Position numbers and translations under genes: made by a program. Positions 42,918 to 60,432 of a stretch of DNA of 64,000 nt are shown in pieces. Position 1 is the first letter of the stretch. Each line of letters starts with the position of its first letter. Below the pieces are notes generated by a model that saw only the letters and a program-made list of their open reading frames with translations, was not told the origin of the DNA and made no database searches. Source of the DNA: Candidatus Obscuribacteraceae bacterium. Lineage in GTDB: Bacteria > Cyanobacteriota > Vampirovibrionia > Obscuribacterales > Obscuribacteraceae. The stretch lies in assembly GCA_044226015.1 (NCBI GenBank), contig JBGAHS010000003.1, positions 384,001-448,000 of the forward strand. The letters are read 5' to 3'.

Positions 42918-42931
42918 CTTCTATTTCTCCA

Positions 42932-44386
42932 CTAAGCTTTGTGCGCCATGCCAACGTCCACACTGCGAAACCTGGCAGGTGGCGCCCCGTGCCCCGTCCA
43001 CATTGTCTGCATCGGTTGACCTTTGCCACAATTTGGCACTCCCCAGTCGACGTAATCGACTGTGCCACCAATGGCAACACAAGAGTTCCAAAACAAAGGT
43101 GTTATGCCTCCATAGCTGCAGTTTTTAAGCAACTTAACACGTCGTCCGTTTTTGATTAACCAGCCAGCTTCAGTGGAGAATTGAAAATTATAACGAAGTT
43201 GATCGATAGACCAACTCCTGTTCGTTTCCATCAAAATTCCTTCATTCGTTTCCGAGACAATATCTTCCAGGCTTCCTGCGCCGCCCGGCAAAAGGGATAT
43301 GTTGGTCATTCGAATAATGGGTGCGAAGTTCCAAGACTCCGCACGCATCATTCCACCAGAGCGACTCAAACCGATTGAGCCTGCGGTGTCTCTCGAGCTT
43401 AGATAGCCTTCGAACATGCCATCTCTCACCAGATAAACATTTTGTGCCTGCACCCCTTCATCATCAAAACCAAAGCTACCCAGAGCACCAGATTTAGTGG
43501 CATCAGCAACAAGGTTTACGATACTAGAACCATACTGCAATCGTCCCAGCTTTTCTGGCGTCAAGAACGAAGCTCCAGCGAAATTGAGTTCTTGCCCCAG
43601 AGCTCGGTCAAGCTCACTCGGGTGCCCCATGCTTTCATGAATTTGCAAAGCCAGCTGAGACGATCCAATAATGAGATCAGTTGTTCCGGCAGGACAAGCA
43701 TCTGCCGAAAGTAAAGCTACAGCCTCTTCGGCAGTCTCTTGCGCGTGCCCCTTAAGGTCCCACTTCTCGATCATTTCCCAGCCTGCAAGTTCGTGCTGCC
43801 CTCCGAAAGATGTCGGGTACGAACGTTTCTGACGGTCAGCCTCATTACTGGCATAAGCTTCGATGCCACAGCTTGAACGAATGAAGCGTTGCTCTATTCT
43901 GCTTCCTTCAGACGAGTAGAACAGCTTTCTTTCCTTGATAAAGGTCATATAACCCTGCGTCAGCGTTATCCCCTTTACCTTCTGCATCAGCCTGGAAGCT
44001 TCAAATAAAACACTTAACTTTGTTTCAATGCTGACGGTGAATGGATCAATCAGATGTGGAGAAACCCAAATAGCATGATATGCCGGTTCATGCGCAAGCT
44101 TCACCGGCGGCTTGACACAAGCTGCACTCGCTTTAGCTACATCAATGGCCTTTCTAACAGCCTTCTCAATTCCTGCTTTCTTCTGCTCTTGCGTAGATGC
44201 AAAACCCCAGCCACCTTTGTAGAGAACGCGAATCCCAAAACCCTGGCTTGAGCTGAGATTCAGCCTCGAAACTTGTTCGTCTTTGGTGGCGATATCCTCG
44301 CTCTGCTGTTCGATGGCTCGAACATCAGCGTATGTTGCACCCAGACTCTTTGCACAATCAAGCGCATAAAGGGCAAGTGACTCCAT
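42932..44386 (-). CDS. tldD: TldD metalloprotease
   Basis: YADVR, HESMGHPSELDR (HExxGHxxE), FDDEG, RMTN, CGKGQP. Confidence 0.92.
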   Translation of the reverse strand: MESLALYALDCAKSLGATYADVRAIEQQSEDIATKDEQVSRLNLSSSQGFGIRVLYKGGWGFASTQEQKKAGIEKAVRKAIDVAKASAACVKPPVKLAHEPAYHAIWVSPHLIDPFTVSIETKLSVLFEASRLMQKVKGITLTQGYMTFIKERKLFYSSEGSRIEQRFIRSSCGIEAYASNEADRQKRSYPTSFGGQHELAGWEMIEKWDLKGHAQETAEEAVALLSADACPAGTTDLIIGSSQLALQIHESMGHPSELDRALGQELNFAGASFLTPEKLGRLQYGSSIVNLVADATKSGALGSFGFDDEGVQAQNVYLVRDGMFEGYLSSRDTAGSIGLSRSGGMMRAESWNFAPIIRMTNISLLPGGAGSLEDIVSETNEGILMETNRSWSIDQLRYNFQFSTEAGWLIKNGRRVKLLKNCSYGGITPLFWNSCVAIGGTVDYVDWGVPNCGKGQPMQTMWTGHGAPPARFRSVDVGMAHKA

Positions 44387-44540: not shown

Positions 44541-45779
44541 TTAATCGACTTTTTCAGACTCGCTATGCAGTGGCACATTACGGAAACTGGCAAAAATCGC
44601 AACATCGTAAAAGGTCTTTAGCCCACCAGCAATCTGAAACGACAGGCTTGCGCACGCGTTGGAAAGAAACCATCCAGACACTAAAGGTGCAGCGCATTGC
44701 CCAAATGAACGTGCAGCAGCTGTCATTCCAGCAACGGCCGTTCTATCTTCCCTGGGCACCAGAACCATTGAGAATGCCTGCCTTGCTGGAATATCCATTG
44801 AAGAAAACAAGGATCTGAGGACAAGAATCATGCCGGCTAAAAACGCATCAGGCATCAGTGGTATCAAACATAGTGCCATGCTGCAAGGCAAATGAGTAAA
44901 CACCATGGTGTTCAAGAGCCCAAAACGCCTGCAAACATAAGGAGAAATAAGGAAAGACACAGCAGCAAGGGCATAAGTCGCCGCAAAAACCTGCCCACTA
45001 AACTCAGGACCCACATGGTACCTTTCGAAAAACCAGAAAGAAATCAGCGTCATCGGAATGAAACCACCAGCAAATGCATCGAGCCCCTGCAGCGAAATGA
45101 GCTTCCAAACAAGCGGAGACCTAATAGCTCTAGACCTCTCAGTACCCGACTCAGAAGATTGGGCACGCAAGGGTCCTAGAATAGAGTAGAGAATTAGGAG
45201 AAGAATTCCACCAAGCGCATACGCGATAAAAATGGATTGATACGCAAACGCAGCAGAGTGCTGATTGCTGAGTAGAGGATAAACAATACCAGCCAGAGAA
45301 GAACCAATTGCAGAGCCAGCAAAGGCGATGAGGTTATATACCGAGAATTCATGTGCAAGCTTTGTCGACTCAGCATTTTCGGAAATCACTGCTTGTTCAA
45401 CAGCTCCAAACGGTCCACCTTCATACCCTGCAGGACTGATGATTCCAAAAACAGCCGCCAACAAGATAGCCCATCGCTCAGTCGCAAATGCAAAAACGGC
45501 ACCCGATGCGCTAAGAACAAGGCTGGCTATCAGCAAAAGATTTCTTAACCCAATTCGATCAGAAAGAACAGACACCAAAGCAGTTAAGACCGCATCTTCG
45601 ATGAGCGTTGCAGACACAATCATGCCGATTTCGAGCGCGCCAAAATTTCGCGAAAGCAAAAACAATGCAAACACAACAGAAACAGACGAGAAGCACAATG
45701 CACGAACGAAACGGGCAACATAGATCAGAACAAGCTTTCGGCTTTGTCCTCCAGGGCTGAACTCTGTCGATTCAATCAC
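44541..45779 (-). CDS. MFS transporter
   Basis: ~12 TMs, SDRIGLR motif A, GPFGAVEQA, SMDIPARQA; starts 2 nt after the GCS2 stop. Confidence 0.9.
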   Translation of the reverse strand: MIESTEFSPGGQSRKLVLIYVARFVRALCFSSVSVVFALFLLSRNFGALEIGMIVSATLIEDAVLTALVSVLSDRIGLRNLLLIASLVLSASGAVFAFATERWAILLAAVFGIISPAGYEGGPFGAVEQAVISENAESTKLAHEFSVYNLIAFAGSAIGSSLAGIVYPLLSNQHSAAFAYQSIFIAYALGGILLLILYSILGPLRAQSSESGTERSRAIRSPLVWKLISLQGLDAFAGGFIPMTLISFWFFERYHVGPEFSGQVFAATYALAAVSFLISPYVCRRFGLLNTMVFTHLPCSMALCLIPLMPDAFLAGMILVLRSLFSSMDIPARQAFSMVLVPREDRTAVAGMTAAARSFGQCAAPLVSGWFLSNACASLSFQIAGGLKTFYDVAIFASFRNVPLHSESEKVD

Positions 45780-45781
45780 CG

Positions 45782-46891
45782 TCAGCCGACTTCTGTGACA
45801 CTCTTACTCAAGACAAGATCTTCCTTTGCAGAGTACAAACCAATCAAATGTGACAGCGTCTTTTCAATGTTTTTTTCCTTTTGGAAAAGGTCGATTAAGT
45901 CATCTGCGGGCAACCTGCGAGAGCGCAGCCTGGACCAGAATTCATCCAGGCACTCGCGAGACAGTCCTAATTTTCGTGCCGTGTGCTCGGCGGCTTCGAG
46001 CACACGAGCTGCGGTTTCGCAAACATGACGAGAATTCAATCCATCTAATGCAATATTGCCCAGGTCGTAAATTCTGGTCTCATCGGTAGCCTGATCTTTC
46101 AGTTCGTCATCAAGCAAAATAGCAAGAGAAAGCAGGAAGAAGGCGTTGTAATCTTCAATACAACGAGACATTTCAAAGCCCTTAAACTCAAAGCGCAACG
46201 AAGGCTTTTCATGCACGTAAAAAAGCGGCGCCCAAATACTTCTTCTATAGGTTCTTATTGATTTGCCGATCTGTCCGCGCCATTTCCACAAACCACCCTC
46301 TGTGAGCGGCGAAGCAAGGGTTAGCGCCACTGCCGCCGGCATGAAGAAATTGATTTTTGCTGCAAGCTCAGATATGTCAATGCGCTTCGAGAGCTCTTCC
46401 GGCAAACTGATATTTATGTCGGGTCCAAAAGTGGTAGCAGCAGTCAAGGCCCATTGCCAGTAATCATGCCTTTTGTAGTTGGGTGCCGCATTGAATTTCG
46501 ATTCAGTAGGATGGTGCGAAATTACCGCAAGGTCAAACCCCTCTTTAAGCACCCGCCGCCTTAAGAGATCAAATAATTTTTGCAACGACACTAATTGCTC
46601 GTCAATGGTATCTGTCATTGGAGTCCGAATTTCTATGCCTTTCGGCAGCAAAGACACCGGATTCATATTTGTATCGGTCAGGTAATAACCTTCCACCAGA
46701 TATGGTGTCGGCTTGCTGTGCAGCGGCTTTATATTGAAACCGCGCTCACTAAACTCGGAGGTATCAATTGAATTGATCAGCCGAGAAAGAAACTCAAAAT
46801 TCAAGTCTTTGTGACCCAGAGGAACGAAACTGTCTTTTCGCACCATCAGAAATTCTGTTTCTATCCCAAACCCGAATCCCGAATTCTGCAT
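45782..46891 (-). CDS. Glutamate-cysteine ligase family 2 (GCS2)-like carboxylate-amine ligase
   Basis: FGIETEF, IEIRTP, GPDINIS, SP..GG, SIR and RFEFK line up with GCS2/YbdK motifs; start ATG 46891. Confidence 0.7.
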   Translation of the reverse strand: MQNSGFGFGIETEFLMVRKDSFVPLGHKDLNFEFLSRLINSIDTSEFSERGFNIKPLHSKPTPYLVEGYYLTDTNMNPVSLLPKGIEIRTPMTDTIDEQLVSLQKLFDLLRRRVLKEGFDLAVISHHPTESKFNAAPNYKRHDYWQWALTAATTFGPDINISLPEELSKRIDISELAAKINFFMPAAVALTLASPLTEGGLWKWRGQIGKSIRTYRRSIWAPLFYVHEKPSLRFEFKGFEMSRCIEDYNAFFLLSLAILLDDELKDQATDETRIYDLGNIALDGLNSRHVCETAARVLEAAEHTARKLGLSRECLDEFWSRLRSRRLPADDLIDLFQKEKNIEKTLSHLIGLYSAKEDLVLSKSVTEVG

Positions 46892-46949
46892 AAAAAACCC
46901 GACACCTTCATTCCTTCTATCTATTTTATAGCTCTTTAGCCTTGCTGCA

Positions 46950-47141
46950 TTAACGCAGGCTGCAATATCCACGAAATCGATACTGAACGAAATCTTCATC
47001 GCCATCGAACTCGCTGACATAGACGTACCCTACACCGATACAAGACAGAGGCAAGATGAAGTGACGCGGCACCTTTTTTGAAATCGAATCAAGAACCAAA
47101 CCGTCAACGGGTCCCCCGAGCAACTCAATCAACATTTGCAT
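46950..47141 (-). CDS. Small GGPxDG-motif hypothetical protein
   Basis: IELLGGPVDG..YRFRG; overlaps the end of the Fur-like gene. Confidence 0.55.
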   Translation of the reverse strand: MQMLIELLGGPVDGLVLDSISKKVPRHFILPLSCIGVGYVYVSEFDGDEDFVQYRFRGYCSLR

Positions 47142-47715
47142 TCTCCCTTACAGCCCAACAATCAGTGCAGACCGAGCGAAGCACTAACTCGATGCGCTGA
47201 AATTCGTAACCCGAGTCTTCGCACAACGCCTTCGCCCTCTCATCAAGATCTTCTTGTTTAAACTCAATTGTTTTATTGCATTGAACGCAAGTCAAAAATC
47301 CTTGCTGGACACCCCTTCGCCATTGGTAGTAAGTTTGGCGCCCCCGCCGAATCGTTTGAATCAAAGCACTTGAGTTCAATCGCTCAAGCACTCTGTAGAT
47401 GGTAGACTTATGCAATTTCTCGCCAAGAGTAGCCAATCTTTCCATGATAGATCGAACTGTCAAAAGCTCACCAGCAGCCTCATTCTCCATGATAGTTGAC
47501 ACAACTCTCAGACACCGAACTTCGCTGCCAATAATGCTGTCATTCTCTTTGAAGCTTGCAATTGCCCTGTAAGCCGAACTCCGTGTCAAATTAACCCCGT
47601 AGTCAGCCATTCTATCCATTAACTCCTGCGCATGCATCCCAGGCTCTTTCTCTAAAATCCTGAAAATAAGCACCTTTCTTTGAAGCCTCTCCGCCCCGCC
47701 TTTTTTACTCTTCAT
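47125..47715 (-). CDS. Fur-family regulator, atypical (duplicated wHTH, no His cluster)
   Basis: LTRSSAYRAI and LHKSTIYRVL helices; CVQC..IEF..CTDC Zn site; HHH position reads QQG. Confidence 0.8.
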   Translation of the reverse strand: MKSKKGGAERLQRKVLIFRILEKEPGMHAQELMDRMADYGVNLTRSSAYRAIASFKENDSIIGSEVRCLRVVSTIMENEAAGELLTVRSIMERLATLGEKLHKSTIYRVLERLNSSALIQTIRRGRQTYYQWRRGVQQGFLTCVQCNKTIEFKQEDLDERAKALCEDSGYEFQRIELVLRSVCTDCWAVRENANVD

Positions 47716-47800
47716 TGATTCCAAAACGCAACCTGCGCCCCCTGCTGTTCGCCACCATTCGTGTGCGAATTAGCCCCCTTCATTGACAAGATCAATACAA

Positions 47801-48181
47801 CTACAAGACCCCTCCCTCACGACACTGCGGTCTACTAGCGCGATTGCATGCGTGCCTTGGACCATTCAAAGCTCGATGCACTCCCGTTACTTCATCAATC
47901 GATTCATGCATTTGCAGCATGTATTCGTTAATGCGCTCAACTTGAATGGCTGACCCCACTTGCTCAGCCTGCATGCGCTTAATCAACAAGCCAGTAATCA
48001 TTCGACCTATACTTCGTATATTCGAGTCGTAAAGTGAGAAGGCGATAGTCAAAACGACATGCTTGGCACTGCCCGTACTTTCATTTATCCTACGCAAACG
48101 CTCTAATGACTCAACAGGCATCTTCTCCAACCATTCGGTAAGACTACTCCTGGTATTCAAATTGTATTCAGAAAAATGCAT
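47801..48181 (-). CDS. Hypothetical protein, first gene of the left arm
   Basis: ATG 48181 with GAGAAAG upstream. Confidence 0.5.
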   Translation of the reverse strand: MHFSEYNLNTRSSLTEWLEKMPVESLERLRRINESTGSAKHVVLTIAFSLYDSNIRSIGRMITGLLIKRMQAEQVGSAIQVERINEYMLQMHESIDEVTGVHRALNGPRHACNRASRPQCREGGVL

Positions 48182-48350
48182 ATGATTATCTTTCTCAACT
48201 ACACTCAAGAAACGCACACCAAAACAAAACACGCGTATCCGCTGCAAACAATTTGCAGAAACAAGATTTGCGGTTTCAAAAAATGCGACTATCAGATTTG
48301 ATAACTGCTTTGGCATTTTTCAGTTTATACAGCTTACTTTACACTAGAAA

Positions 48351-48380
48351 AAATTATTTGAGAACCATTCTCAATAATTT
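48351..48380. promoter_or_regulatory. Fur-box-like palindrome
   Basis: aaattatttgagaa-cca-ttctcaataattt; core TGAGAAC-C-ATTCTCA fits the 7-1-7 TGATAAT-N-ATTATCA pattern. Confidence 0.75.
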
Positions 48381-48492
48381 GACGATCACATAATCAACGA
48401 GCCTTCTGTGAACTCGGGCAATTCCAGCAAGAATAAAATCTTCACATGAGAAAAGGTCGCCTTATTTGACATTTCAACTGTAACGAGAGTTA

Positions 48493-48549
48493 TTGACATG
48501 CCCCTCTCCTCGCCCCTAAACTCCAGAGATTAATTGAGAATGATTGCCA
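48493..48549 (+). promoter_or_regulatory. Sigma70-type promoter followed by a second Fur-box-like site
   Basis: TTGACA(48493)-18 nt-TAAACT(48517); TGAGAAT-G-ATTGCCA at 48535-48549. Confidence 0.65.
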
Positions 48550-48633
48550 TGTCGCAAAATTAGCGACAAGCAAACAAAAAAACCACACAATGCCAGGCGA
48601 GCGCCTACAAATGTTCGAAAAGAGGGGAATTGC

Positions 48634-51312
48634 ATGCACGACCTATCAAAACAGACAGCTGGCGCGATGAGTTCGTCCACGCACACAACGAGAGTTCAAA
48701 CTTATTCAATCGGGCAATTCAGGAACACCGCCGATGAATTAGCCGAAGAGCTCCGCGAACTAGAGTTTCTCTCTGACAGTTATCTCTTCGGATTAAGCAA
48801 CGATACCGGCGAAACCAACTGGCTTTTGTCCAGCCTGGTCAAAGAAGTCAAATTACTGCGCTCTACAATTCGGTCCCGCCTTCACCAGCTTGAGCGAGCA
48901 AGACGCTGGAGCAGCAGCGACGAACTAAAATTGCTCACGCAACAATGTCATTTTGAAATCGGAAATCACAAAGAAGCACTGCGAAAACTATACTCGGCAC
49001 GCGGTAAAGCCTTATGCGCTGGGGACTGGCAAAGTCCAATTTATGCCTCTTCTTACAGTTCAAGCAGAAACAGACAACAAGATGGAATCAGAGAACACAT
49101 TCTAGATTACAAACGAGATGGACACCTCGAAGCAAAGTCTTACGAACAATCCTTTATGAAGGAGTATGCCTCACACCTGGGCTCTAGCTCGATCGAAGCC
49201 TACCTGACCAATAACGGCATGGCCGCTTTCAGTTCCGCTCTTCACTGGATTACACAGGAAGCAAAATTCATGGGGAAGGCACTAGCTGTAGTGCCCATGT
49301 ACTTCGAGAACCTTCATCTAGCAGAGGCATTTATCCCCCAGCTAGAGCAGTTTAACGCGGAGGACAACACCGTCACCCTCTTAGAAAAGCTGCAAAAGGA
49401 AGGTCCTACGATAGTTATTTGCGACACTGTTTCAAATTGCGGAAAAGTTCTGGTTCAGCCTTACAAAGAAATTTTCCAATGGGCAAAAAAAGAAGAGGGA
49501 CGCCCAATCGCGATCGTTCTCGATGCTACTTGTTCTCCTGCATTCTTACTGGAAGACAACTTGCTTCAAGAGCTTCCGGACAGCGTGAGCGTCTTCATCA
49601 TCGAAAGCCTGGCAAAATATCATCAATACGGCATGGACCTAGTAACTGGCGGCATAGCGCTTGTTCATAGCTCAAGCAAAAACCAGGTAAGCTTTAATCG
49701 CACAAGAGCCAGATTCGGTGCAAACATAGTAGATAGCAGCGTCGGCTCTCTGCCTGTTCCTAGCAAATTGGTTCTGGAAAAGCGCCTCAGAAGACACTCT
49801 CGCAACGTCCAATTCTTCAGTGAACAATTGGAAAGAATCATTCAAGTAAAACCCGGACTAATAGAATCAGTCGAGTGGCAATCGCGTGAACTCACCGAAG
49901 AAAACAACTGGTTCAGAAGCTCTTGCCTGACTCTTCGGTTTCGACCTGCGTGCTCATCTATTCAAGCATACAAGGAATTCGAAGAAGAAATTTTGAGATT
50001 AGCCAAACTCAGGAACCAGCCAATCGCCTTGAGCACCAGCTTCGGCTTCGACGTTACTCGATTTTATGTCACTGCACCAGCCTCAGCCTACGAGTCCCCA
50101 TTTCTACGAGTGGCCATCGGCACAGAAAGCCTCTCTCAGATAAAAAAATTGATTTCCCTGGTCGAAGAATGCAGCGCTAAGCTTGCGCTCCAGTGGAAGG
50201 ATCTCAGCGTGGCAGCACCAAAAGCAACCCAGCCAGCTAGCACAAAATTGGAAAACCTTTCAGGGACAAAAGCAGCATTCAAGAACACTGTATACATGGG
50301 CGAAGATGCACTTCACCGTTATCTTTCTCCAGAAAACTTTGCCGTCACGCCACTAGTGGAACTGCCAGCAGACCTCAACCCCTTCAATAATGATGGGGTG
50401 CGCATTCTTGCAAAAATGGTGCCGCTTGTTCCACTAATGAACATCAAATCAATTCCAGCCTTCTCAATGTTACGCAAAGCAGCTCAGAGAGGCGAATTAA
50501 ACGGCGTCAAAAACATCATTGAAAGTTCATCGTCCAATACCGTGCTGTCCTTGAGTGTAATCTCAAAGCTGTTTGGCGTGGACAATACTTGTGCGATCGT
50601 GGACCACTCGATAGCACCAGGACTGGTGCGCATGCTTCGTTTGTTTGGAATCGAAATATATAAACACCCAGCGCCTGGCCATGAACTCTTCGGAAAAACG
50701 GAAGCACGCAGCTTGCGAGCCGCAAATATGGGCAAGCAAGATGGTTGGTACAACCCGAATCAATATGCAAACCCTGACAATCCAGAAGGTTTTGCACGCT
50801 GGCTAGCACCTGAACTATGGGCTCAAACGCAGGGCAAACTGGATGTGTTAAGCTGCGCCTTGGGCACTTGTGGCACCATGGTCGGTGTCAGTCGCGAACT
50901 GCGCAGTCGCAAGCAAGAAATGAGCGTAGTAGCTTGTTGTCCGGCAAGAGGTGAAGCAGTACCCGGACCGCGAGAAAAAATGCTTCTAGGAGATGTTGCA
51001 TTCCCATGGCAAGAAATTGCAGATTCGCGCATGGAAATGGGAGCCGAAGAGAGTTTTGCAGCAAGCATCAAACTCCTCAGAAGAGGAATACTGGGCGGTC
51101 CAAGTTCAGGAATGAACTATGCAGGACTTCTAAAGTACCTTGGCGAATTAAGAGACTCTGGACAGCTTGAAGAAGCCATCACAAAGCAAGGTACACTTAA
51201 CGCTGTCTTCCTCTGCTGTGACTCACCACTTCCGCACATCGACGAGTACTTCGATGCGCTGGGCGAAAAATACTTTCCAGACGTCCATGAAGTTCCCGAG
51301 CTTAGCAAATAA
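48634..51312 (+). CDS. Fused PLP enzyme: Cys/Met-metabolism (fold I) domain + cysteine synthase/CBS-like (fold II) domain
   Basis: N half: YKRDG, NGMAA, DTVSN, LDAT, ESLAKY, LRVAIG. C half: TPLVEL, NIKSIPA, IESSSSNT, NQYANPDN, LGTCGT, GPSSG. GAGGGG RBS. Confidence 0.85.
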   Translation: MHDLSKQTAGAMSSSTHTTRVQTYSIGQFRNTADELAEELRELEFLSDSYLFGLSNDTGETNWLLSSLVKEVKLLRSTIRSRLHQLERARRWSSSDELKLLTQQCHFEIGNHKEALRKLYSARGKALCAGDWQSPIYASSYSSSRNRQQDGIREHILDYKRDGHLEAKSYEQSFMKEYASHLGSSSIEAYLTNNGMAAFSSALHWITQEAKFMGKALAVVPMYFENLHLAEAFIPQLEQFNAEDNTVTLLEKLQKEGPTIVICDTVSNCGKVLVQPYKEIFQWAKKEEGRPIAIVLDATCSPAFLLEDNLLQELPDSVSVFIIESLAKYHQYGMDLVTGGIALVHSSSKNQVSFNRTRARFGANIVDSSVGSLPVPSKLVLEKRLRRHSRNVQFFSEQLERIIQVKPGLIESVEWQSRELTEENNWFRSSCLTLRFRPACSSIQAYKEFEEEILRLAKLRNQPIALSTSFGFDVTRFYVTAPASAYESPFLRVAIGTESLSQIKKLISLVEECSAKLALQWKDLSVAAPKATQPASTKLENLSGTKAAFKNTVYMGEDALHRYLSPENFAVTPLVELPADLNPFNNDGVRILAKMVPLVPLMNIKSIPAFSMLRKAAQRGELNGVKNIIESSSSNTVLSLSVISKLFGVDNTCAIVDHSIAPGLVRMLRLFGIEIYKHPAPGHELFGKTEARSLRAANMGKQDGWYNPNQYANPDNPEGFARWLAPELWAQTQGKLDVLSCALGTCGTMVGVSRELRSRKQEMSVVACCPARGEAVPGPREKMLLGDVAFPWQEIADSRMEMGAEESFAASIKLLRRGILGGPSSGMNYAGLLKYLGELRDSGQLEEAITKQGTLNAVFLCCDSPLPHIDEYFDALGEKYFPDVHEVPELSK

Positions 51313-52748
51313 TGAATGTGAAAACGAAAGTGTCCTTCAAAGCAACTAGTCCCCCAAAAACAGACTGCGCACCAATTCTCGAAGCAAAGACGGCCGATTG
51401 GATGCGCGCCCTGCTTGAAGAAAAGCAGCTGATCAAAAAATGGGTCAGCGAATTCGGCTCACCGCTCCACGTCGTTGTGAAAGACGAATTCTATAAAAAT
51501 GTGGATTGCTTGTTAAAACCACTACAAGAGCGAACCATTGAAGGAAACCTCTTTTTTGCTCGTAAAGCAAACAAGCTAAGCTTCTTTGTGGAAACGGCAA
51601 AGCAAGCTGGCATCGGCGTGGATACAGCCAGCATTACGGAGCTCAAGGAGACAATTCAGCTCGGACTGCATCCGGAGAAAATAATTCTGACAGCAATTGG
51701 CAAAGACGAAACCCTCCTCAGAACCGCCATGGATCATGATTGCCTCATAATTATTGAAAATGAAGATGAGCTCGCTCTGGTAAAACAACTCGCAGCTTCC
51801 CAAAGCAAAGCAATCAAGATCGGATTGCGCTTCGCCGGATTTGAAATAGATGAACGCCTCATTTACAGCCGCTTTGGACTCAACTTTAAAGAACACCGCG
51901 CGATCATAGATGGAATTAGCAATAGCAATCTAAATATCAAATTGCTCCATGCACACATAGATAGGTATGACACCACAGAACGAGCAATGGCAGCTCGACA
52001 GCTTATCATCGCTAGCAGGCACGCCAAAAGCCTGGGGCACGAATGCGACGCTATAGACCTTGGCGGTGGCATTTTGATGCGCTATCTCGAACATGAAGAA
52101 CACTGGATCAACTTTCAGAACGAACTCATAGCGGCAGTAAAAGGCGAGAGAAAACCGTTTACCTTCAAGGGCGACGGACTGGGCTACTTTCTGGCAGCAG
52201 GAAAACTCGCAGGACATGCCGATTTCTACCCTGCCTGGAACTCGCTCTACAAAGAGAATTTCATAGCAGCAATTCTAGATCACAAGCACAAAAACAGCCT
52301 ACTTCACGAAGAGATAAAGGCAGCAAAGTTACGCCTATATTTCGAGCCGGGACGCGCGCTTCTGGATAATTGTGGTATCACATTTGCCAATGTTGCATTT
52401 AGAAAGAAGGACACTCTAAATCAAAAGCTCATCGGACTGAGAATGAATCGTATGAACCTTCGTCCCTTCAGAGCAGAGTTTTGCAGCGACCCAGTCATCC
52501 TTTGCTTCGGCGCAAGGGAAAAGGCGCAAGAAGGCGCCTATCTTGTGGGCTGTTTGTGCTCCGAGAGCGATACGATATTCCGACGGAAATTCTTTTTCGA
52601 CGAAGTGCCCGAACCCGGCGACATCTTCGCGTTTATCAACAGCGCAGGCTACCTTGCCCACCACATGGAAATCGGGACGCACGGTGACGCTGTTCCAACA
52701 AACATTCTGATCGAGCCCGGAAGCTGGATGATTCAAGGACAAGCATAA
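51312..52748 (+). CDS. Y4yA-type fold-III PLP decarboxylase (DAP/ornithine decarboxylase-like)
   Basis: FGSPL, FFARKANK, DTAS..E, SRFG, HAH, DLGGG, FEPGRAL, GCLCSESD, NSAGY; TAATG coupling. Confidence 0.85.
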   Translation: MNVKTKVSFKATSPPKTDCAPILEAKTADWMRALLEEKQLIKKWVSEFGSPLHVVVKDEFYKNVDCLLKPLQERTIEGNLFFARKANKLSFFVETAKQAGIGVDTASITELKETIQLGLHPEKIILTAIGKDETLLRTAMDHDCLIIIENEDELALVKQLAASQSKAIKIGLRFAGFEIDERLIYSRFGLNFKEHRAIIDGISNSNLNIKLLHAHIDRYDTTERAMAARQLIIASRHAKSLGHECDAIDLGGGILMRYLEHEEHWINFQNELIAAVKGERKPFTFKGDGLGYFLAAGKLAGHADFYPAWNSLYKENFIAAILDHKHKNSLLHEEIKAAKLRLYFEPGRALLDNCGITFANVAFRKKDTLNQKLIGLRMNRMNLRPFRAEFCSDPVILCFGAREKAQEGAYLVGCLCSESDTIFRRKFFFDEVPEPGDIFAFINSAGYLAHHMEIGTHGDAVPTNILIEPGSWMIQGQA

Positions 52749-53479
52749 TGAGCACTGAATCAACACAGACACAGCAGAGCTGCAATAAAGTTGCGCTAGT
52801 AACAGGAGCAGGACAAGGAATAGGACGAGCCCTTACCGAAGCGCTAGCGCAGAGAAATTACATCGTACTTGCCCTTGTTCGCAGCTTGAAGGATCTTGAC
52901 GAGCTGGCTCAAATCCCGATGGTGCAAGCAGTCTGCTCTGATGTCACCGAAGACTCCAGCGAGAGAATATTGCGCGAATTCGCCGAAAGCAAAGTAGACA
53001 AAATCGATTTACTCATCAATAACGCTGGATATGGGGCATCTGCCTATGGCATCGAAGGACTAAAGCTTGAAGAACTAAATCGAGTGCTGGCGGTGCATTG
53101 CCACGGACCGATTCGCTGCATAAAAGCCTGCCTGCCACTACTCAGACGCTCAAACGATGCAGCAATCCTAAACATATCATCACGCTTTGCCTCAATTGAA
53201 TGGGTTGCAAGAAAGATGGTGCCGCCAGAGCAGGCTACCTACGCCTATCGCATTGCCAAAGCAGCGATGAACATGCTCAGCGCCTGCCTTGCCGTCGAGC
53301 TGGAGGGCAGCAATATCCGCGTCTTAGCAATAGACCCAGGCAAAGTGAAGACACGATTCGGACCTGTGGATGCTGACACTGAAGCAGCAGAGGCAGCTTT
53401 ATCAATTCTGCAACTTGCAGAAACAAGAAAAGAAACAGGAAAATTCATACACGCATCAGGAGAAGAATTGCCATGGTAG
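52748..53479 (+). CDS. Short-chain dehydrogenase/reductase (CsgA-like)
   Basis: TGAGQGIG, NNAG, NISS, YRIAK, DPGKVKT; TAATG coupling. Confidence 0.9.
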   Translation: MSTESTQTQQSCNKVALVTGAGQGIGRALTEALAQRNYIVLALVRSLKDLDELAQIPMVQAVCSDVTEDSSERILREFAESKVDKIDLLINNAGYGASAYGIEGLKLEELNRVLAVHCHGPIRCIKACLPLLRRSNDAAILNISSRFASIEWVARKMVPPEQATYAYRIAKAAMNMLSACLAVELEGSNIRVLAIDPGKVKTRFGPVDADTEAAEAALSILQLAETRKETGKFIHASGEELPW

Positions 53480-54606
53480 ATCGTCATTGGGCAGTCAAAG
53501 ACAGAAATGAGCCCTTCGTTGTTCCATCATTTGAAACGATAAGCTTTTCAATGCCATCCATGACAAATTGGGAGTCGCTTCTCAAAGGCGAACAAGATGG
53601 CTGGGTTTATCTCAGCGATGGGAATCCGACCCTTGCCGCACTAGAAAATTTGCTTGCTCGCATTCAAGGAACAGAAGCCTGCTGGGTAACCAGCACAGGA
53701 AAATCGGCTATCGCTGCGGCTTTACTGGCGCTGCTTAAAGCAGGCGATCACTTCATTCTTCTTCGAGAAGGCTATAAGTCAACTCGCCTCTTTGCTGAGG
53801 GAATACTCAAGAAGTACGGGGTCGAGCTCAGCCTCATCGAAGTCGACCAACTAAATGAGCTGCAAAGGTTTATCAAGCCGAATACAAAAGCGTTGGTTCT
53901 CGAAGCGCCCACAAATCCTATGACCCGCGTTCCAGACCTATTTGAATGCTGCAAGATTGCCAGAGACGCAGAAGTAATTACATTGCTAGACAACTCACTT
54001 GCTGGATTTCATCAACATGGAAATGTTCCAGTTGACGTAATACTTCACAGCCTTTCAAAATTTGCCTCGGGCGTGGGCGATGTAATGGGAGGCGCAGTTC
54101 TCGGCACGAAGGACATAGTGAAGCAGATCAAAAATGCCAACGTCTGGAATACTGACGCATTGAGCAGCCACTCAGCAGTTGAACTCTGGAAAGGCATGCA
54201 AACATACGATCTCCGCATCCAGCGCCAATCTTCAAACGCACTGGCAATAGCCAGGTTTCTTGAGAAACACCCCAATGTAGAAAGAGTACTCTACCCCGGA
54301 CTTGAAAGCCATCCAGACCACGGAATCGCAAAGAGGCAAATGAAAGACTTTGGCTCTGTGCTAGCGTTTGACACTAAGACACCAGAAAAAATGAGAGAAG
54401 CATTGGATAAAATGTCCGTCTTCCGCATCGCATTTGGAACCGGCTTCACCCAATCAATAGCAAACCCCGCCTGGCTATTTTATGCGCGGTCCTTCCCCGA
54501 ACCTCAAACCGGACCATCAGCGATTACAGACTGCACCATCAGACTATCTGTAGGAATAGAGGAACCCTCTCTGCTGATTTCGGATCTCGAAGCTGCGCTG
54601 GCATAG
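53473..54606 (+). CDS. Cystathionine gamma-synthase/lyase-family PLP enzyme
   Basis: GNPT, EAPTNP, DNS, HSLSKF, YPGLESHP, IRLSVGIE. Confidence 0.9.
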   Translation: MVDRHWAVKDRNEPFVVPSFETISFSMPSMTNWESLLKGEQDGWVYLSDGNPTLAALENLLARIQGTEACWVTSTGKSAIAAALLALLKAGDHFILLREGYKSTRLFAEGILKKYGVELSLIEVDQLNELQRFIKPNTKALVLEAPTNPMTRVPDLFECCKIARDAEVITLLDNSLAGFHQHGNVPVDVILHSLSKFASGVGDVMGGAVLGTKDIVKQIKNANVWNTDALSSHSAVELWKGMQTYDLRIQRQSSNALAIARFLEKHPNVERVLYPGLESHPDHGIAKRQMKDFGSVLAFDTKTPEKMREALDKMSVFRIAFGTGFTQSIANPAWLFYARSFPEPQTGPSAITDCTIRLSVGIEEPSLLISDLEAALA

Positions 54607-54625
54607 CGACTAATGGTAAGCAAAA

Positions 54626-55852
54626 ATGACTGAGCACCTTTCCGGCAACGATATCGACTCAGAAATTATCATCCTCGGCGCAGGAATAGCAGGCATCACT
54701 TGTGGTATCACCATGCAATGCCTGGGTTTTAGAACTGCAATTGTGTCCGAGAAGTTCCCCCTTTTGGAAGAACACGATAATTCTGACAAAGAGATTGCTA
54801 CGATCTATGCAATGGCATCGGCATATCCTCACTTCCTCAAGATTGAGAATCTGGAAAGAGTCAGCGACGATTCACAAGCCATTCTCTGCGAATTATTCAC
54901 TACAAAAGACTCAGGCATAGAGAAGCAGCGGATTTTCGAAGTCTTTGAATTTGAGCCGCCCTCCAACGCGGCAGCACTGTCTGATCGTCGAATGCGCTTC
55001 ATGAGTTTCGACGGCAAATCAGAACAGCTAAAAAAAACAATCGATCCGCCCGCACGAGGACAGGCGAACCAACTCTGGGGCTGGAGCTTCGAATCATATT
55101 TTGCAGACATGCCAGCATACGTTCGATATCTATGGGCATTCTACCGGGAGTTGGGTGGCAAGAGCATTCGCGCAAAAGTTCACACCCTGAAAGAGCTTGA
55201 ATCGCTGAGCAACCGCATCTTCATCAACTGCTGCGGACTTGGCGCCATAGCGTTGTGCACTGATGAATCGGAAGCTATAGTTCTGCGCGGAAAGCAAGTT
55301 TTGATTAACGAGCCAGGAATCTTCGACAAAGACGGCTTGCGCCTGGCTTACAACTACACACCTACTGCCGACGTTTTTTCTCGAGCCGATGGCACCCCAG
55401 AATATGTACATTTCTTCTCTCGCTCAAACGAGTGGCTGCTCGGGCAAACAAGAGAACGAGGAAAGCTGATAGATGGCAGATGGCAGGGCATGATTTCCGG
55501 CAAAAGCGAACTGACAGTTGATGGCGTAATGATTCCACAGGAAATACTGCAGCTAAACGAGGACATCTTGAACAATTGGAAGCAAAGAACATTTTCAAAA
55601 ATCGGAATGAAAGCGCGTGAAGCTTATCGATATTACAGAGACCCAGAAAACAGTGGAGTCCGATTAGAGAAGGAGGATCTTGGAGCTAACAGAATCTTTC
55701 ACAATTATGGGCTCGCAGGCTCAGGTGTAACCATGTCCTGGGGGTGCGCTATAGAATGCGCTCACATGGCGCTTGATTCAAGCAATCCTGGACAAATCAA
55801 TAATCAGAGCAGCTTAGCTAACAAAATTCGATCTCGAATCGCTGCTAGCTAG
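54626..55852 (+). CDS. D-amino acid oxidase-like FAD oxidoreductase
   Basis: LGAGIAG, INCCGLGA, RGK, HNYGLAGSGVTMSWGCA. Confidence 0.85.
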   Translation: MTEHLSGNDIDSEIIILGAGIAGITCGITMQCLGFRTAIVSEKFPLLEEHDNSDKEIATIYAMASAYPHFLKIENLERVSDDSQAILCELFTTKDSGIEKQRIFEVFEFEPPSNAAALSDRRMRFMSFDGKSEQLKKTIDPPARGQANQLWGWSFESYFADMPAYVRYLWAFYRELGGKSIRAKVHTLKELESLSNRIFINCCGLGAIALCTDESEAIVLRGKQVLINEPGIFDKDGLRLAYNYTPTADVFSRADGTPEYVHFFSRSNEWLLGQTRERGKLIDGRWQGMISGKSELTVDGVMIPQEILQLNEDILNNWKQRTFSKIGMKAREAYRYYRDPENSGVRLEKEDLGANRIFHNYGLAGSGVTMSWGCAIECAHMALDSSNPGQINNQSSLANKIRSRIAAS

Positions 55853-57143
55853 CCCCAGATTCGTCATGAGCAGCCAGCACCGATGCTCTAAACTTGCAAG
55901 CTAGCGGAATCAGCATCAGCGAGATGGACGGCGCCAGACTTGCTAAAACCACCAGACTTTTGTAGTCCTCATGAACTACGTTTTGGAAAAGCTGACCGCC
56001 AACAAAAGTGGCTGATGATGTGGCGATGTTTCTCACCGCAACCAGCCAGGCCATCACTGACACTTCAATGCGACGCGGACAAACGTCAGCTGCAAAACCG
56101 TAAAGAGAAAGTATCGCTGTAAGGTTGGCAAAACCATGAAAGAACTCCAGAAAAGAAGCAGACGCCGGCGTGGAAATCATGCGAAAAGAGATTGTACTCA
56201 CAATCACTAGCACTGTAGTTGCAATCAATTGTCCTTTCAAACTCAAGAAGCGAAGAAGAAGCGGATACGCAAAAGACGCCAATAACATTCCGGCGGAGTT
56301 CCAGGCGGCCAACTGCCCTATTGCACTCTGCGAAAAGCCTAATGTTTTGCTCTCGTAAAAATAAAGCGGCACACCGAATGATGGCAAAAAGCTCCACAGA
56401 AACGAGAATATGACCACAAGCCATAGTGCAGGCGAGCGAAGCCCATCCTTCAACGAACGCATGGTATCGCCCATGGCGGCACGATTCAAAAAGGACCTTT
56501 CCTCAAAAACCAATTTAAAAGTAAGAAAAGAAATTAGCAAGAGAGGTGCAACCGCAAGCAGAGCAGCAATGTGAAGCGCCCCCAATGGCGTCAAATTTTG
56601 ACAAAGGATACCTCCAAAAATGACCGCCGCGATATTAGCACTGTAGTATGCAATTTCCTGAATTATGAACAGAGTTCTGGCATTTGTACCTGCTCGTCCC
56701 TCTTCCACTGCCAACCCAACCATTAAAACAGTAGCCACAGCCATACTCAGAGCAGTTAGCATCAAACACACAAGAATTAGGCTTAGCGAATTTGCGCAAA
56801 ACATCACAAGAAATGCCAAAGCAGCAAAAGCATTTGCAAAGATAAGATAGCTCTTGCGACGATATCCAAATAAAGGAACGAAGTCAGAAAGCAGCCCATA
56901 GAAGGGCTTAAGCATCCACGGCAACATTAGCAATGACATATTGGCTGATATTTGCGCCGCATCAAAGCCCAGTCCGCGCATCATGAAAAACTGTATGGGC
57001 TGGGCAATTACACCAAACTGAGCGCAAGAGATTCCCTGAGAAAGATAGGCCAACAGGAAATAGATTCCAATCTTGTTTAACGTATCGCGGGAATCAGGAG
57101 ATTCCGAATTTCGCGAATGAGTGTCGCCTTTAATCATAGTCAC
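55845..57143 (-). CDS. BT1 (folate-biopterin)-type MFS transporter
   Basis: PWMLKPFYGLLSDFVPLFGYRRKSY signature; ~12 TMs. Confidence 0.85.
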   Translation of the reverse strand: MTMIKGDTHSRNSESPDSRDTLNKIGIYFLLAYLSQGISCAQFGVIAQPIQFFMMRGLGFDAAQISANMSLLMLPWMLKPFYGLLSDFVPLFGYRRKSYLIFANAFAALAFLVMFCANSLSLILVCLMLTALSMAVATVLMVGLAVEEGRAGTNARTLFIIQEIAYYSANIAAVIFGGILCQNLTPLGALHIAALLAVAPLLLISFLTFKLVFEERSFLNRAAMGDTMRSLKDGLRSPALWLVVIFSFLWSFLPSFGVPLYFYESKTLGFSQSAIGQLAAWNSAGMLLASFAYPLLLRFLSLKGQLIATTVLVIVSTISFRMISTPASASFLEFFHGFANLTAILSLYGFAADVCPRRIEVSVMAWLVAVRNIATSSATFVGGQLFQNVVHEDYKSLVVLASLAPSISLMLIPLACKFRASVLAAHDESGAS

Positions 57144-57644: not shown

Positions 57645-58607
57645 ATGAGCGAACGAAACGTTCTCATCATCGGCTCGGGCGTCAGCGGACTCAGCGTGGC
57701 ACACAAACTGCTTCTTGCTGGGCATCGAGTGCAGATCTGGACCAAAGACGCAGCTGACAGCTCACCAACCACTTCCGCTTCGGCCTACGGCATGTGGGTT
57801 CCAGTGAAGATCGACGCCGACCCCAGAGTCGAACGTTGGGCGCAGGAAACCTACGCCGAGCTGGTCGGACTGGCAGCAAGGGGGAAGGCGGGCGTTACGC
57901 TGCGTAAGATCTACCAGCTCAAGGGTGAGCACAGTGAGCCCTGGTATGCGTCCAGCGTTCCCGGTGTCCGCCATGCCACCTCCGGCGAAATCAGCGCTGA
58001 CTACGCTGACGCTCATGTCATCGAGGCTGCTCCCATCGTTGACCCCGAGACCTACCTGAGCTACCTGCGCGGCGAAATTCGTCTGCTCGGCGGCAGCATC
58101 GTGACTCGCACCGTGACTGACCTGTCTGAGTGCGCCGACTTCGATGCCGTCGTCAACTGTAGCGGTCTCGGTGCAAGGCGGCTCTGCAACGACAGCTCGC
58201 TCTTCCCCGAGCGAGTGCAGGTCGTTCGCATCAAGCCCAACGGCTTCCAGCATGTCGTCGTGGACGACGAAGGTCCGCACAAGCGCGCCTGCATCGTGCC
58301 ACACAGCGACTACATTCAGCTCGGCGCCGTCTTCGACACGGGCAGCGAGTCGCTTGATGTCGACGCGACACTGACGGCTGACATCATCTCACGCTGCAAG
58401 CGCATGGTCCCCGGGTTCAAGGTCGACCCTGAGGACATCATCAGCGTCCACCGCGCCCTTCGCCCGGAACGCCCGCTCACCCGGGTGGAACTGGAACGCA
58501 AGGACGAAGGTCCCCACATCATCCACAACTACGGTCATGATGGCATGGGCTACCTGCTGTCCTGTGGCATTGCCAACGAAATCGCTGGCTACGTGGGCGC
58601 GCTCTAA
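57645..58607 (+). CDS. D-amino acid oxidase
   Basis: IIGSGVSG, VNCSGLGA, ALRPER, HNYGHDGMG; GGAG RBS. Confidence 0.88.
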   Translation: MSERNVLIIGSGVSGLSVAHKLLLAGHRVQIWTKDAADSSPTTSASAYGMWVPVKIDADPRVERWAQETYAELVGLAARGKAGVTLRKIYQLKGEHSEPWYASSVPGVRHATSGEISADYADAHVIEAAPIVDPETYLSYLRGEIRLLGGSIVTRTVTDLSECADFDAVVNCSGLGARRLCNDSSLFPERVQVVRIKPNGFQHVVVDDEGPHKRACIVPHSDYIQLGAVFDTGSESLDVDATLTADIISRCKRMVPGFKVDPEDIISVHRALRPERPLTRVELERKDEGPHIIHNYGHDGMGYLLSCGIANEIAGYVGAL

Positions 58608-58757
58608 ACGGCAAGTTGCGGACGAGAGCAAGTGCTCTCGTCCGTCTTAGCTGTTGTTTCTAGCGAGCTATCGCTTTTACTTCGGCTGAGAAGCCGTTTT
58701 CACAGCGTCCTGCGGCAAAAACGTGGGACCTTTTCGAACCTCATGAGGTATTTCATC

Positions 58758-60368: not shown

Positions 60369-60432
60369 GAGCCGGGAGCTCTGCGCGGCAGAGCTCCCTT
60401 ATTTTTCAACTCTAGCGATCCAGGAGGATCCT

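Follow-up and report, generated by a model that had tools for sequence, protein, structure and literature searches.

Several enzymes that depend on pyridoxal 5′-phosphate (PLP) are known to join O-phosphoserine (OPS) to the amine of a second amino acid. According to the available part of a preprint (bioRxiv 10.1101/2025.10.30.685158), SbnA and CmnB couple OPS to glutamate, with N-(2-amino-2-carboxyethyl)-glutamate as the SbnA product, aspergillomarasmine A (AMA) synthase joins OPS first to aspartate and then to toxin A, and Tln5 uses D-alanine. Fda4 from Fusarium poae, a PLP enzyme with a rhodanese-like domain, joins OPS to L-alanine, and the flavin adenine dinucleotide (FAD)-dependent oxidoreductase Fda3 converts the conjugate to L-2,3-diaminopropionate and pyruvate, as far as the accessible text of PMC12751119 describes. 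In excerpts of two further sources, AMA is presented as a natural zinc metallophore (PMC8829947) and the production of ethylenediaminedisuccinate (EDDS) in Amycolatopsis japonicum as repressed via Zur (PMC9252823). The system considered here is a PLP-enzyme operon behind Fur-type operator-like boxes, found in a 64,000-nucleotide stretch of DNA (the window; G000:C6:384001-448000) from a member of Candidatus Obscuribacterales (Melainabacteria), an uncultured lineage of non-photosynthetic cyanobacterial relatives. The genome under study (G000) spans 8.19 Mb and is 92% complete. Within the window, the right arm is the PLP operon running rightward from 48544/48634 on the + strand, while the left arm comprises genes on the − strand for an orphan protein, a Fur-like protein, a 63-aa protein, a GCS2-like ligase, and a major facilitator superfamily (MFS) transporter.

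For the right arm, direct observation covers (i) its gene order, (ii) its translational couplings, (iii) four PLP-binding lysines, (iv) the conservation of operon and boxes across relatives, and (v) the presence of the same type of box at feoB. Together with the adjacent BT1-family transporter and a second oxidase resembling D-amino-acid oxidase (DAAO), it is a lineage-specific operon of Candidatus Obscuribacterales. Our preferred reading is a tentative one, to which we grant somewhat less than an even chance: the operon would be induced by iron limitation through its Fur-type boxes and would build and export a non-proteinogenic acid of the diamino or aminopolycarboxylate type that serves as a small metallophore, made by neither a nonribosomal peptide synthetase (NRPS) nor an NRPS-independent siderophore (NIS) synthetase.

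Gene presence was counted in 41 related genomes, namely G000, 24 further genomes of its family, and 16 from outside the family. Full-length fusion genes, which encode the two-domain PLP enzyme at the head of the operon, occur in nine of them (G000, G003, G004, G010, G012, G013, G015, G019, and G021) and are confined to one family (8 of the 24 family genomes besides G000, none of the 16 outside). Twenty operon loci (L-numbers) were collected by scanning one conserved peptide pattern over 185,579 species genomes, a search that more distant forms may escape; an initial single-protein scan of genome contigs gave no relative, and the alignment-based scan did. By title, 18 of these loci belong to Obscuribacterales or Melainabacteria, one to a Planktothrix sp., and one to an Oculatellaceae cyanobacterium. 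The order of fusion, decarboxylase, short-chain dehydrogenase/reductase (SDR), enzyme resembling cystathionine γ-synthase (CGS), and FAD oxidase is kept in every sufficiently long locus but L035 of G019. The decarboxylase and the SDR are each present in 19 of the 20 loci and, as some loci end at contig edges, the CGS-like gene in 17 of the 18 that reach that far and the DAO-family gene in 16 of 17. The second DAAO-like gene is found in all 13 loci with enough flank, and the BT1 transporter is adjacent in nine of them. In L035 of G019, a class-I/II aminotransferase stands where the flavoenzyme is missing, which gives weak support to a flavoenzyme that converts an amino acid to a keto acid.

An earlier sequence-only reading of this DNA had proposed one cluster between 44541 and 57143, and all of its open reading frames (ORFs) are present with fitting Pfam and NCBIfam families. 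Its right arm is indeed inherited as a unit, collinear in the window and the 20 related loci, whereas its right-hand limit leaves out the second DAAO-like gene. The couplings it described were confirmed by reading the DNA directly: TAATG at 51310-51314 links the fusion to the decarboxylase gene, TAATG at 52746-52750 links the latter to the SDR gene, and the SDR and second γ-family genes overlap in ATGGTAG at 53473-53479. The four PLP active sites that it counted all carry their Schiff-base lysines, and the FAD motifs are present as well.

The first gene of the operon encodes two PLP domains in one polypeptide, which probably begins at the ATG at 48634 and not at 48544; the former lies behind a GAGGGG Shine-Dalgarno sequence and yields the 892-aa form found as a protein-database entry. 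The N-domain carries its lysine in SLAKYHQYG (nt 49606). The window copy has no Pfam match in this domain; PF01053 is precomputed on many orthologues and also matches a standalone paralogue in G019. A structural model built on 45 sequences (pLDDT 89.9) matches the structures of cystathionine γ-lyase (CGL), CGS, and methionine γ-lyase (MGL) with Foldseek E-values of ~1e-18, TM scores of 0.6-0.7, and identities of 15-19%. The Schiff-base lysine K226 and the pyridine-nitrogen aspartate D195 (alignment numbering) are invariant in all 45 sequences. On this model, the N-domain is a divergent γ-family enzyme of fold-type I. Its clade numbers 480 representatives at E ≤1e-3 among 1.84 billion cluster representatives, mostly standalone proteins of ~500 aa, and four of the ten clusters looked up bear a name, either ‘PLP-dependent transferase’ or ‘cystathionine beta-lyase/gamma-synthase’.

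The C-domain, with its lysine in MNIKS (nt 50437), is classed by its family matches as a cysteine-synthase/SbnA-like PLP enzyme of fold-type II, so that the proposed union of fold-I and fold-II domains is borne out by the N-domain model and by PF00291. It scores 109.8 bits against the SbnA model TIGR03945 at residues 613-871, under the cut-off of 349.95, and the cysKM, CysM, CysK, and CBS models likewise stay below their cut-offs. The best match in the Protein Data Bank (PDB) is 8H4H/8H4Q, a ‘rhodanese domain-containing protein’ (E 2e-68, 234 bits), with the best cysteine synthase at 84 bits; a literature search found no paper naming either code. Relatives outside the lineage combine PF00291 with PF00581 and include unnamed metagenomic proteins at 41-45% identity and, as the nearest named ones, fungal proteins at 36-39%. 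Close homology of the PALP domain places the C-domain in this PALP(+rhodanese) clade. The fusion has no match to the rhodanese family PF00581 and ends ~50 residues past the PALP domain.

A variant of the fusion occurs in G019, on the same contig as L035. There, the N-domain has glutamine in place of the PLP lysine (ERLEQHHHFG; L016:10373-13060), and a standalone, lysine-bearing N-domain paralogue (L016:7394-8902) occupies the operon slot of the CGS-like gene. From the sequences, this looks like decay of a domain with compensation.

The remaining enzymes were assigned per ORF with Pfam and NCBIfam, and their equivalog status was judged against the curated cut-offs. The decarboxylase reaches 120 bits with the lysA model TIGR01048, under the equivalog cut-off of 297.9, and its best PDB matches are diaminopimelate (DAP) decarboxylases (E 3e-17). 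It has all of the motifs ARKANK, DLGGG, EPGRA, and CSESD and is classed by these features as a decarboxylase of the fold-III superfamily outside the LysA equivalog. The second γ-family enzyme has its lysine in SLSKFASG and resembles methionine γ-lyases most closely in the PDB (E 8e-67). No NCBIfam equivalog (OSHS, MGL, CGS, or CBL) reaches its cut-off on this protein, which is the best conserved of the operon at 69-77% identity across loci. The oxidase encoded next matches the D-aspartate oxidase 6rkf (E 1e-10), and its Atlas neighbours are DAO-family clusters of bacteria and Ascomycota.

The boxes were sought with the query TTGAGAA-N3-TTCTCAA. When N3 is T-N-A, the box reads TGAGAAT-N-ATTCTCA, a 7-1-7 arrangement that we take to be the Fur-family operator form. 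Across the 8.19 Mb, sites with zero, one, and two mismatches number 1, 3, and 63, versus 0.04, 1.7, and 32 expected, while the whole window at ≤3 mismatches holds five versus 5.6 expected and is not above chance. At ≤2 mismatches, 25 boxes fall within the 15,259 bp upstream of fusion genes, in 17 of the 20 loci (not in L025, L029, and L033), versus 10 in the other 331,770 bp, and several of these 10 lie in the spacer between the BT1 and DAO genes (L017, L019, and L023). The same type of box, twice in perfect form, stands 36-58 bp before the ligase gene of the left-arm module in genomes devoid of the PLP operon. A site is present in six of eight ligase loci at ≤2 mismatches, one of which, ~800 bp away, is doubtful.

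The tie to iron comes from feoB. In G000, two boxes precede this gene by 30 and 60 bp, and in relatives a box of the type TTGATAw-N3-TTTCTCAA (TTGATAwNNNTTTCTCAA) is found 40-140 bp upstream, in 13 of 15 cases at ≤3 mismatches and in 8 of 15 at ≤2. Boxes of the feoB type number 17 in 8,294 bp upstream versus 5 in 61,821 bp elsewhere. The palindromes first described as Fur-box-like are thus conserved across species, have the Fur-type form, and have a variant before feoB. Because this variant precedes feoB in relatives, the box type is likely tied to iron uptake and the operon likely under iron/Fur control; a conserved operator upstream of a canonical iron-uptake gene is what an iron-Fur regulon is expected to show, and it was found. 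The classical Fur, PerR, and Zur consensus boxes are not enriched in G000, and no box lies before its two canonical Fur-family genes or near its PepSY_TM gene (a single gene, C11:174811-175884). Near matches adjoining genes of G000 for Tad pili, DUF proteins, kinases, glyoxalases, and unknown products occur at chance frequency and were not retained as regulon members. The box spacing in the window is regular, with exactly 176 bp between the central box and each flanking one and 177-179 or 89-90 bp in other loci, a pattern pointing to operators set in phase or to repetition of a promoter unit.

Two kinds of regulator may act at these boxes. The Fur-like protein next to the operon carries an N-terminal extension of ~70 residues and retains the structural Cys4 site (CVQC at 146, CTDC at 186), and its orthologues in G004 and G013 keep HxGH. 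G000 also encodes two canonical Fur paralogues with HEHDH and HQH motifs, one on C11 (at about 746.5 kb) and the other on C4. A canonical Fur encoded elsewhere in the genome appears to be an equally good, and sufficient, candidate, because the feoB box persists in genomes whose search gave no long-form Fur-like gene. The description of the neighbouring gene as an atypical Fur agrees with its family and with its loss of ligands; it adjoins the operon in only 3 of the 20 related loci.

The chemistry of the operon may be sketched by analogy. The C-domain of the fusion would perform β-replacement, taking O-phospho- or O-acetyl-serine as the substrate and an amino acid's amine as the nucleophile, and so give an N-(2-amino-2-carboxyethyl) ‘pseudo-dipeptide’ in the manner of SbnA, CmnB, AMA synthase, Tln5, and Fda4. 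A DAAO-like flavoenzyme would then oxidize the amine to release 2,3-diaminopropionate and a keto acid, as Fda3 does, or would supply an imino or keto acid; in this way, the DAO-family enzyme may fill the role of the missing SbnB. The fold-III decarboxylase would remove one carboxylate, the two γ-family enzymes would add or exchange a four-carbon amino acid unit by γ-replacement with formation of a C–N or C–S bond, and the SDR would reduce an imine or ketone. Finally, transport of the product, or of its complex with the metal, over the inner membrane would fall to the BT1 transporter.

A broader version of this proposal, which we hold to be possible but doubtful, envisages an all-PLP route (β- and γ-replacement, decarboxylation, flavin oxidation, and SDR reduction, with no NRPS, NIS, or nicotianamine synthase) to a small metallophore, either an aminopolycarboxylate or a polyamino acid, similar in type to EDDS, aspergillomarasmine, or nicotianamine. 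The route would be placed under a lineage-specific Fur box, with the complex recovered by MFS transporters and a PepSY_TM reductase in place of a TonB receptor. A concrete version is unlikely: aspartate and OPS would yield toxin A, decarboxylation would give N-(2-aminoethyl)aspartate, and reductive coupling to oxaloacetate would produce an EDDS- or AMA-like acid. This last scheme leaves the γ-family enzymes without a role.

Several points weigh against a metallophore pathway. With regard to transport, no TonB-dependent receptor barrel (PF00593) was found in G000 by a search that matched control genomes, so no classical siderophore cycle is visible, and the window holds no uptake system or receptor, as had been remarked from its sequence; moreover, the known BT1-family members are importers, so this transporter may take something up. 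With regard to chemistry, all operon enzymes score below every curated equivalog cut-off and the substrates named above are guesses, C–S chemistry of the cystathionine or lanthionine type would fit the enzyme families as well as C–N chemistry does, the likeness to 8H4H/8H4Q brings no assigned function to the C-domain, and its fungal relatives are taken for Fda4 or AMA-synthase orthologues by domain architecture. With regard to regulation, the window’s own spacer between the BT1 and DAO genes lacks a box, the adjacent Fur-like protein departs from the regulatory-site motifs (VQQGF for HHDH, YQW with Gln for Glu instead of YEx, and QRIEL for NHSLY), and its long-form orthologues occur in two of the eight other cluster-bearing genomes searched. 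On the other side, matches to IucA/IucC (PF04183) and to the NRPS condensation domain (PF00668) are absent throughout the 92%-complete G000, with control genomes matched, which extends to the genome what had been claimed for the locus.

The freedom to read the same families as makers of C–S bonds gives rise to the best-surviving alternative, an iron-regulated sulfur-amino-acid pathway (transsulfuration-like, forming a thioether of the lanthionine/cystathionine type, or releasing persulfide/H2S) in which the decarboxylase, oxidases, and SDR tailor a product for intracellular use in thiol or Fe–S supply or as a redox buffer. At three of the four PLP sites, the enzyme family is one with textbook C–S bond makers or breakers, proteins of the MOSC family, which is linked to sulfur and Moco chemistry, adjoin the operon in nine of the 13 sufficiently flanked loci (not in the window), the nearest relatives of the C-domain often bear a rhodanese (sulfurtransferase) domain, and iron-type boxes would suit an Fe–S-related need equally. 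However, ordinary CysK/CysM-like paralogues lie elsewhere in G000, the patchy distribution of the operon (8 of 24 family genomes) does not suit a housekeeping pathway, and a dedicated membrane transporter is co-conserved with it. The fusion itself lacks the rhodanese domain, and the sole function-tested PALP+rhodanese member found in the literature covered forms a C–N bond, as far as the accessible text reports (PMC12751119). We therefore regard this alternative as having a modest chance at best, and the thioether product once suggested for the cluster is neither supported nor contradicted.

Doubt about the signal sensed at the boxes opens a second alternative, in which the same enzymes make a specialised amino acid with an antimetabolite or signalling role (for example, a vinylglycine, an ether, or a diamino acid) under a pathway-specific Fur-family regulator that responds to something other than iron, with the likeness to the feoB box reflecting shared Fur-family architecture. 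Gamma-family PLP enzymes and PLP-PLP fusions do occur in toxin pathways, as exemplified by RtxA of rhizobitoxine biosynthesis. In G000, the box is almost restricted to the cluster, with one perfect copy and with near matches by Tad-pilus and unknown genes at chance level, and the adjacent Fur-like protein is devoid of iron-site ligands. Yet the box is kept in 14 of 17 related loci that have no adjacent Fur-like gene, and genomes whose search gave no long-form Fur-like gene, such as G003, G006, and G007, likewise have the TTCTCAA half-site before feoB. The neighbours of the operon point to iron as well. Flavodoxin, the low-iron substitute for ferredoxin, is encoded divergently upstream in 5 of the 20 loci (compared with seven for the orphan protein and three for the Fur-like gene), and a PepSY_TM gene adjoins the operon in G012. 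The probability of this alternative is accordingly low. The weakest alternative, that BT1 imports an amino-acid conjugate or a foreign aminopolycarboxylate–metal complex for the oxidases, PLP lyases, and decarboxylase to dismantle with release of metal and nitrogen, is unlikely: two D-amino-acid/D-aspartate-type oxidases and lyase-like PLP enzymes are typical catabolic tools, and both the importers among characterized BT1 proteins and the want of a TonB-dependent receptor or classical siderophore synthetase in G000 accord with it, but SbnA, Fda4, AMA synthase, and Tln5, the relatives of the fold-II domain, are synthetic β-replacement enzymes in the available parts of their descriptions, five enzymes, an SDR among them, stand in a tight translational coupling that resembles an assembly line, and family scans of the window found no binding protein or hydrolase.

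Setting these alternatives aside and returning to the metallophore reading, the left arm is, by its distribution, an independent module that shares the box and not part of one joint pathway with the PLP operon, since each module occurs without the other. The GCS2-like gene is present in 9 of the 41 genomes (G000, G002, G003, G004, G005, G007, G018, G023, and G024), three of which also have the fusion (G000, G003, and G004); the two are adjacent only in G000 and lie on separate contigs in G003 and G004. The proposal that the ligase forms an amide on the right-arm product is consequently not supported by co-inheritance, with nine fusion genomes and nine GCS2 genomes sharing three among 41, and is left with shared regulation only. 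For the same reason, a single cluster spanning both arms finds no backing in co-occurrence, and what survives of it is regulation through a shared box.

The conserved order of the left module is (orphan)–(Fur-like)–(63-aa)–ligase–MFS. The ligase gene, which probably starts at 46891, reaches 30 bits with TIGR02050, below the cut-off. It is followed by the MFS gene in six of eight loci, the other two (L045 and L047) stopping at a contig end, and a PepSY_TM gene follows the pair in four genomes (L044, L046, L048, and L049). The order MFS–TldD–PmbA–NUDIX seen in the window recurs only in G007. A reading of the small protein, the ligase, and the TldD/PmbA pair as a system for a ribosomally synthesized and post-translationally modified peptide was dropped, as the protease pair joins the module in only one other genome and the small protein is devoid of testable precursor-like features; it has no family match in Pfam or NCBIfam.

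The orphan protein, which probably starts at 48181, heads both modules, adjoining the PLP operon in seven of the 20 loci and the GCS2 module in three of eight, and may for this reason be a regulator or a metal-binding factor. Residues His43, His94, and Cys114 are invariant in the alignment. The family comprises 53 proteins among 5.8 billion, and every named member is called ‘hypothetical’. No Pfam domain was found in it, Foldseek against the PDB gave no match at E ≤0.001, the Atlas gave no usable match, and the best VIA-align Z score of 5.7 is within the noise for helical proteins.

Table 1. Coordinates of the genes, boxes, and promoter-like element around the PLP operon, in positions of the window.
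Feature	Position	Strand	Evidence and remarks
TldD-like (42932-44386) and PmbA-like (41568-42917) metalloprotease pair	41568..44386	−	Pfam; membership in left module uncertain
MFS_1 transporter after ligase gene	44541..45779	−	PF07690, 101 bits
GCS2/YbdK-like carboxylate-amine ligase	45782..46891	−	ORF open to 47020; PF04107, 27 bits, partial, cut-off 21
Conserved 63-aa protein	46950..47141	−	59-60% identical copies precede the GCS2 gene in G007 and G004
Atypical Fur-family protein	47125..47724	−	PF01475, 64.9 bits at residues 75-182, cut-off 23.1
Orphan helical protein, 126 aa	47801..48181	−	ORF to 48316; orthologues 116-127 aa
Weaker box ATGATTATCTTTCTCAA	48182..48198		3 mismatches; abuts probable orphan-gene start
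Central box TTGAGAAccaTTCTCAA, perfect operator-like palindrome	48358..48374		Sole perfect copy in genome
Sigma-70-like promoter match, TTGACA-18-TAAACT	48493..48522	+	10/12; consensus match only, 3 in region versus 2.5 expected
Weaker box TTGAGAATGATTGCCAT	48534..48550		3 mismatches; just downstream of promoter-like match
PLP-PLP fusion, 892 aa	48634..51312	+	ORF open from 48544 (922 aa); PF00291 at residues 601-872
Fold-III (Orn/DAP/Arg-type) PLP decarboxylase	51312..52748	+	PF02784, 86 bits
SDR	52748..53479	+	PF00106, 114 bits; TGAGQGIG, NISS, YRIAK motifs
Second γ-family PLP enzyme (CGS/MGL/OSHS-like)	53473..54606	+	PF01053, 291 bits, cut-off 27
Divergent DAO-family FAD oxidase (DAAO/D-aspartate-oxidase-like)	54626..55852	+	PF01266, 42 bits
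BT1-family MFS transporter, convergent with operon	55845..57143	−	PF03092, 100 bits
Second DAAO/D-aspartate-oxidase-like flavoenzyme	57645..58607	+	PF01266, 108 bits; PDB 6rkf, E 3e-31

Other features were noted around these genes. After the second oxidase, at 58632-61149, comes the gene for a DyP-type peroxidase of 578 aa, whose N-terminus bears a long extension, and then one for a thioredoxin-like [2Fe-2S] ferredoxin-like protein, an order that recurs in G003 of the same genus. A scan of 41000-61500 gave no Rfam RNA family at E ≤0.1. Farther away in the window, the family matches of a 2538-aa ORF (66-7682) are limited to FHA domains and a cytoplasmic domain of the YscD-like kind close to its C-terminal quarter, and two adjacent class-III aminotransferase genes on the − strand (20835-22151 and 22162-23526) stand next to a phage-integrase-family gene (23767-24678, +). 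Two related loci have a second amino-acid-type operon (L028:1-5077 and L029:3964-8084), which lies upstream of the PLP one by a few kb. It encodes a fold-III decarboxylase, a 449-aa PALP+rhodanese protein, and a class-V aminotransferase, followed in L028 by GNAT and Fur-family genes, and has MerC as a neighbour in L028 and a copper-type P-type ATPase in L029. This may be another metal-linked metabolite pathway.

Searches of open-access texts found no description of this PLP operon, and a search on Obscuribacter with siderophore, gene cluster, or iron returned no paper containing ‘Obscuribacter’ among the top-ranked ones, although others may exist. Among the sequencing runs listed with the stretch, seven are DNA runs from bioreactor and activated-sludge metagenomes, one of which is possibly its source, and none is an RNA run.

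If the product proves to be a chelator, the operon would add a further enzymatic logic, the third for bacterial metallophores after NRPS and NIS. It would be located in a deep, uncultured branch of the Cyanobacteriota (Obscuribacterales of bioreactor and activated-sludge origin), represented here by G000, where no classical siderophore synthetase or TonB receptor was found. PLP enzymes that lack a curated equivalog, such as the γ-family/fold-II fusion and the orphan γ-family clade of ~480 representatives, are of interest to biocatalysis for access to C–N pseudo-dipeptides and aminopolycarboxylates, a class to which AMA, an inhibitor of metallo-β-lactamases, and EDDS, a biodegradable replacement for EDTA, belong. 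For a lineage that lacks genetics, the boxes define a Fur-type operator open to testing. Should the product turn out not to be a chelator, the two co-regulated modules would still give a first point of entry to how Melainabacteria respond to iron.

Among known systems, staphyloferrin B biosynthesis in Staphylococcus aureus (SbnA/SbnB/SbnH) shares with this locus a cysteine-synthase-like enzyme, a fold-III decarboxylase, an MFS transporter, and Fur-type control. The window differs in having no SbnB-type (ornithine-cyclodeaminase-like) gene and the genome in having no IucA/IucC; two γ-family PLP enzymes and two DAAO-like oxidases are present in the window instead. Fda4/Fda3 and AMA synthase resemble the operon in using a PLP enzyme of the PALP(+rhodanese) kind, which both Fda4/Fda3 and this operon pair with an FAD-dependent oxidoreductase. 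In contrast to Fda4 and AMA synthase, likened here by architecture and not by direct sequence comparison, the present system is bacterial, lacks rhodanese and NRPS, has its PALP domain fused to a γ-family domain, and stands behind Fur-type boxes. Relative to Fda4/Fda3, it adds a fold-III decarboxylase, an SDR, and a second γ-family PLP enzyme.

The [S,S]-EDDS genes of Amycolatopsis japonicum, compared by description and not by sequence, are alike in having a metal regulator of the Fur family and a small aminopolycarboxylate product made without NRPS or NIS, the latter being the prediction here. Among the products of its aes genes are enzymes resembling SbnA and DAP decarboxylase. That system belongs to an actinomycete and has zinc as its metal signal, and to our knowledge no γ-family PLP enzyme or PLP-PLP fusion is part of it. 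Opine-type metallophores such as staphylopine and pseudopaline (cnt) are small nicotianamine-like chelators with Fur/Zur control and an exporter. CntL takes a 3-amino-3-carboxypropyl unit from S-adenosylmethionine, and γ-replacement with an amine would give the same unit. The likeness is one of logic only, as the window has no nicotianamine-synthase-like or opine-dehydrogenase match and its chemistry would be PLP-based. Judged on enzyme families, the operon appears most like the SbnA/SbnB/SbnH branch combined with the fungal chemistry of Fda4/Fda3 or AMA synthase and is not a member of the SbnA family or of NIS or NRPS systems; what it adds to them is the PLP-PLP fusion and a second γ-family enzyme.

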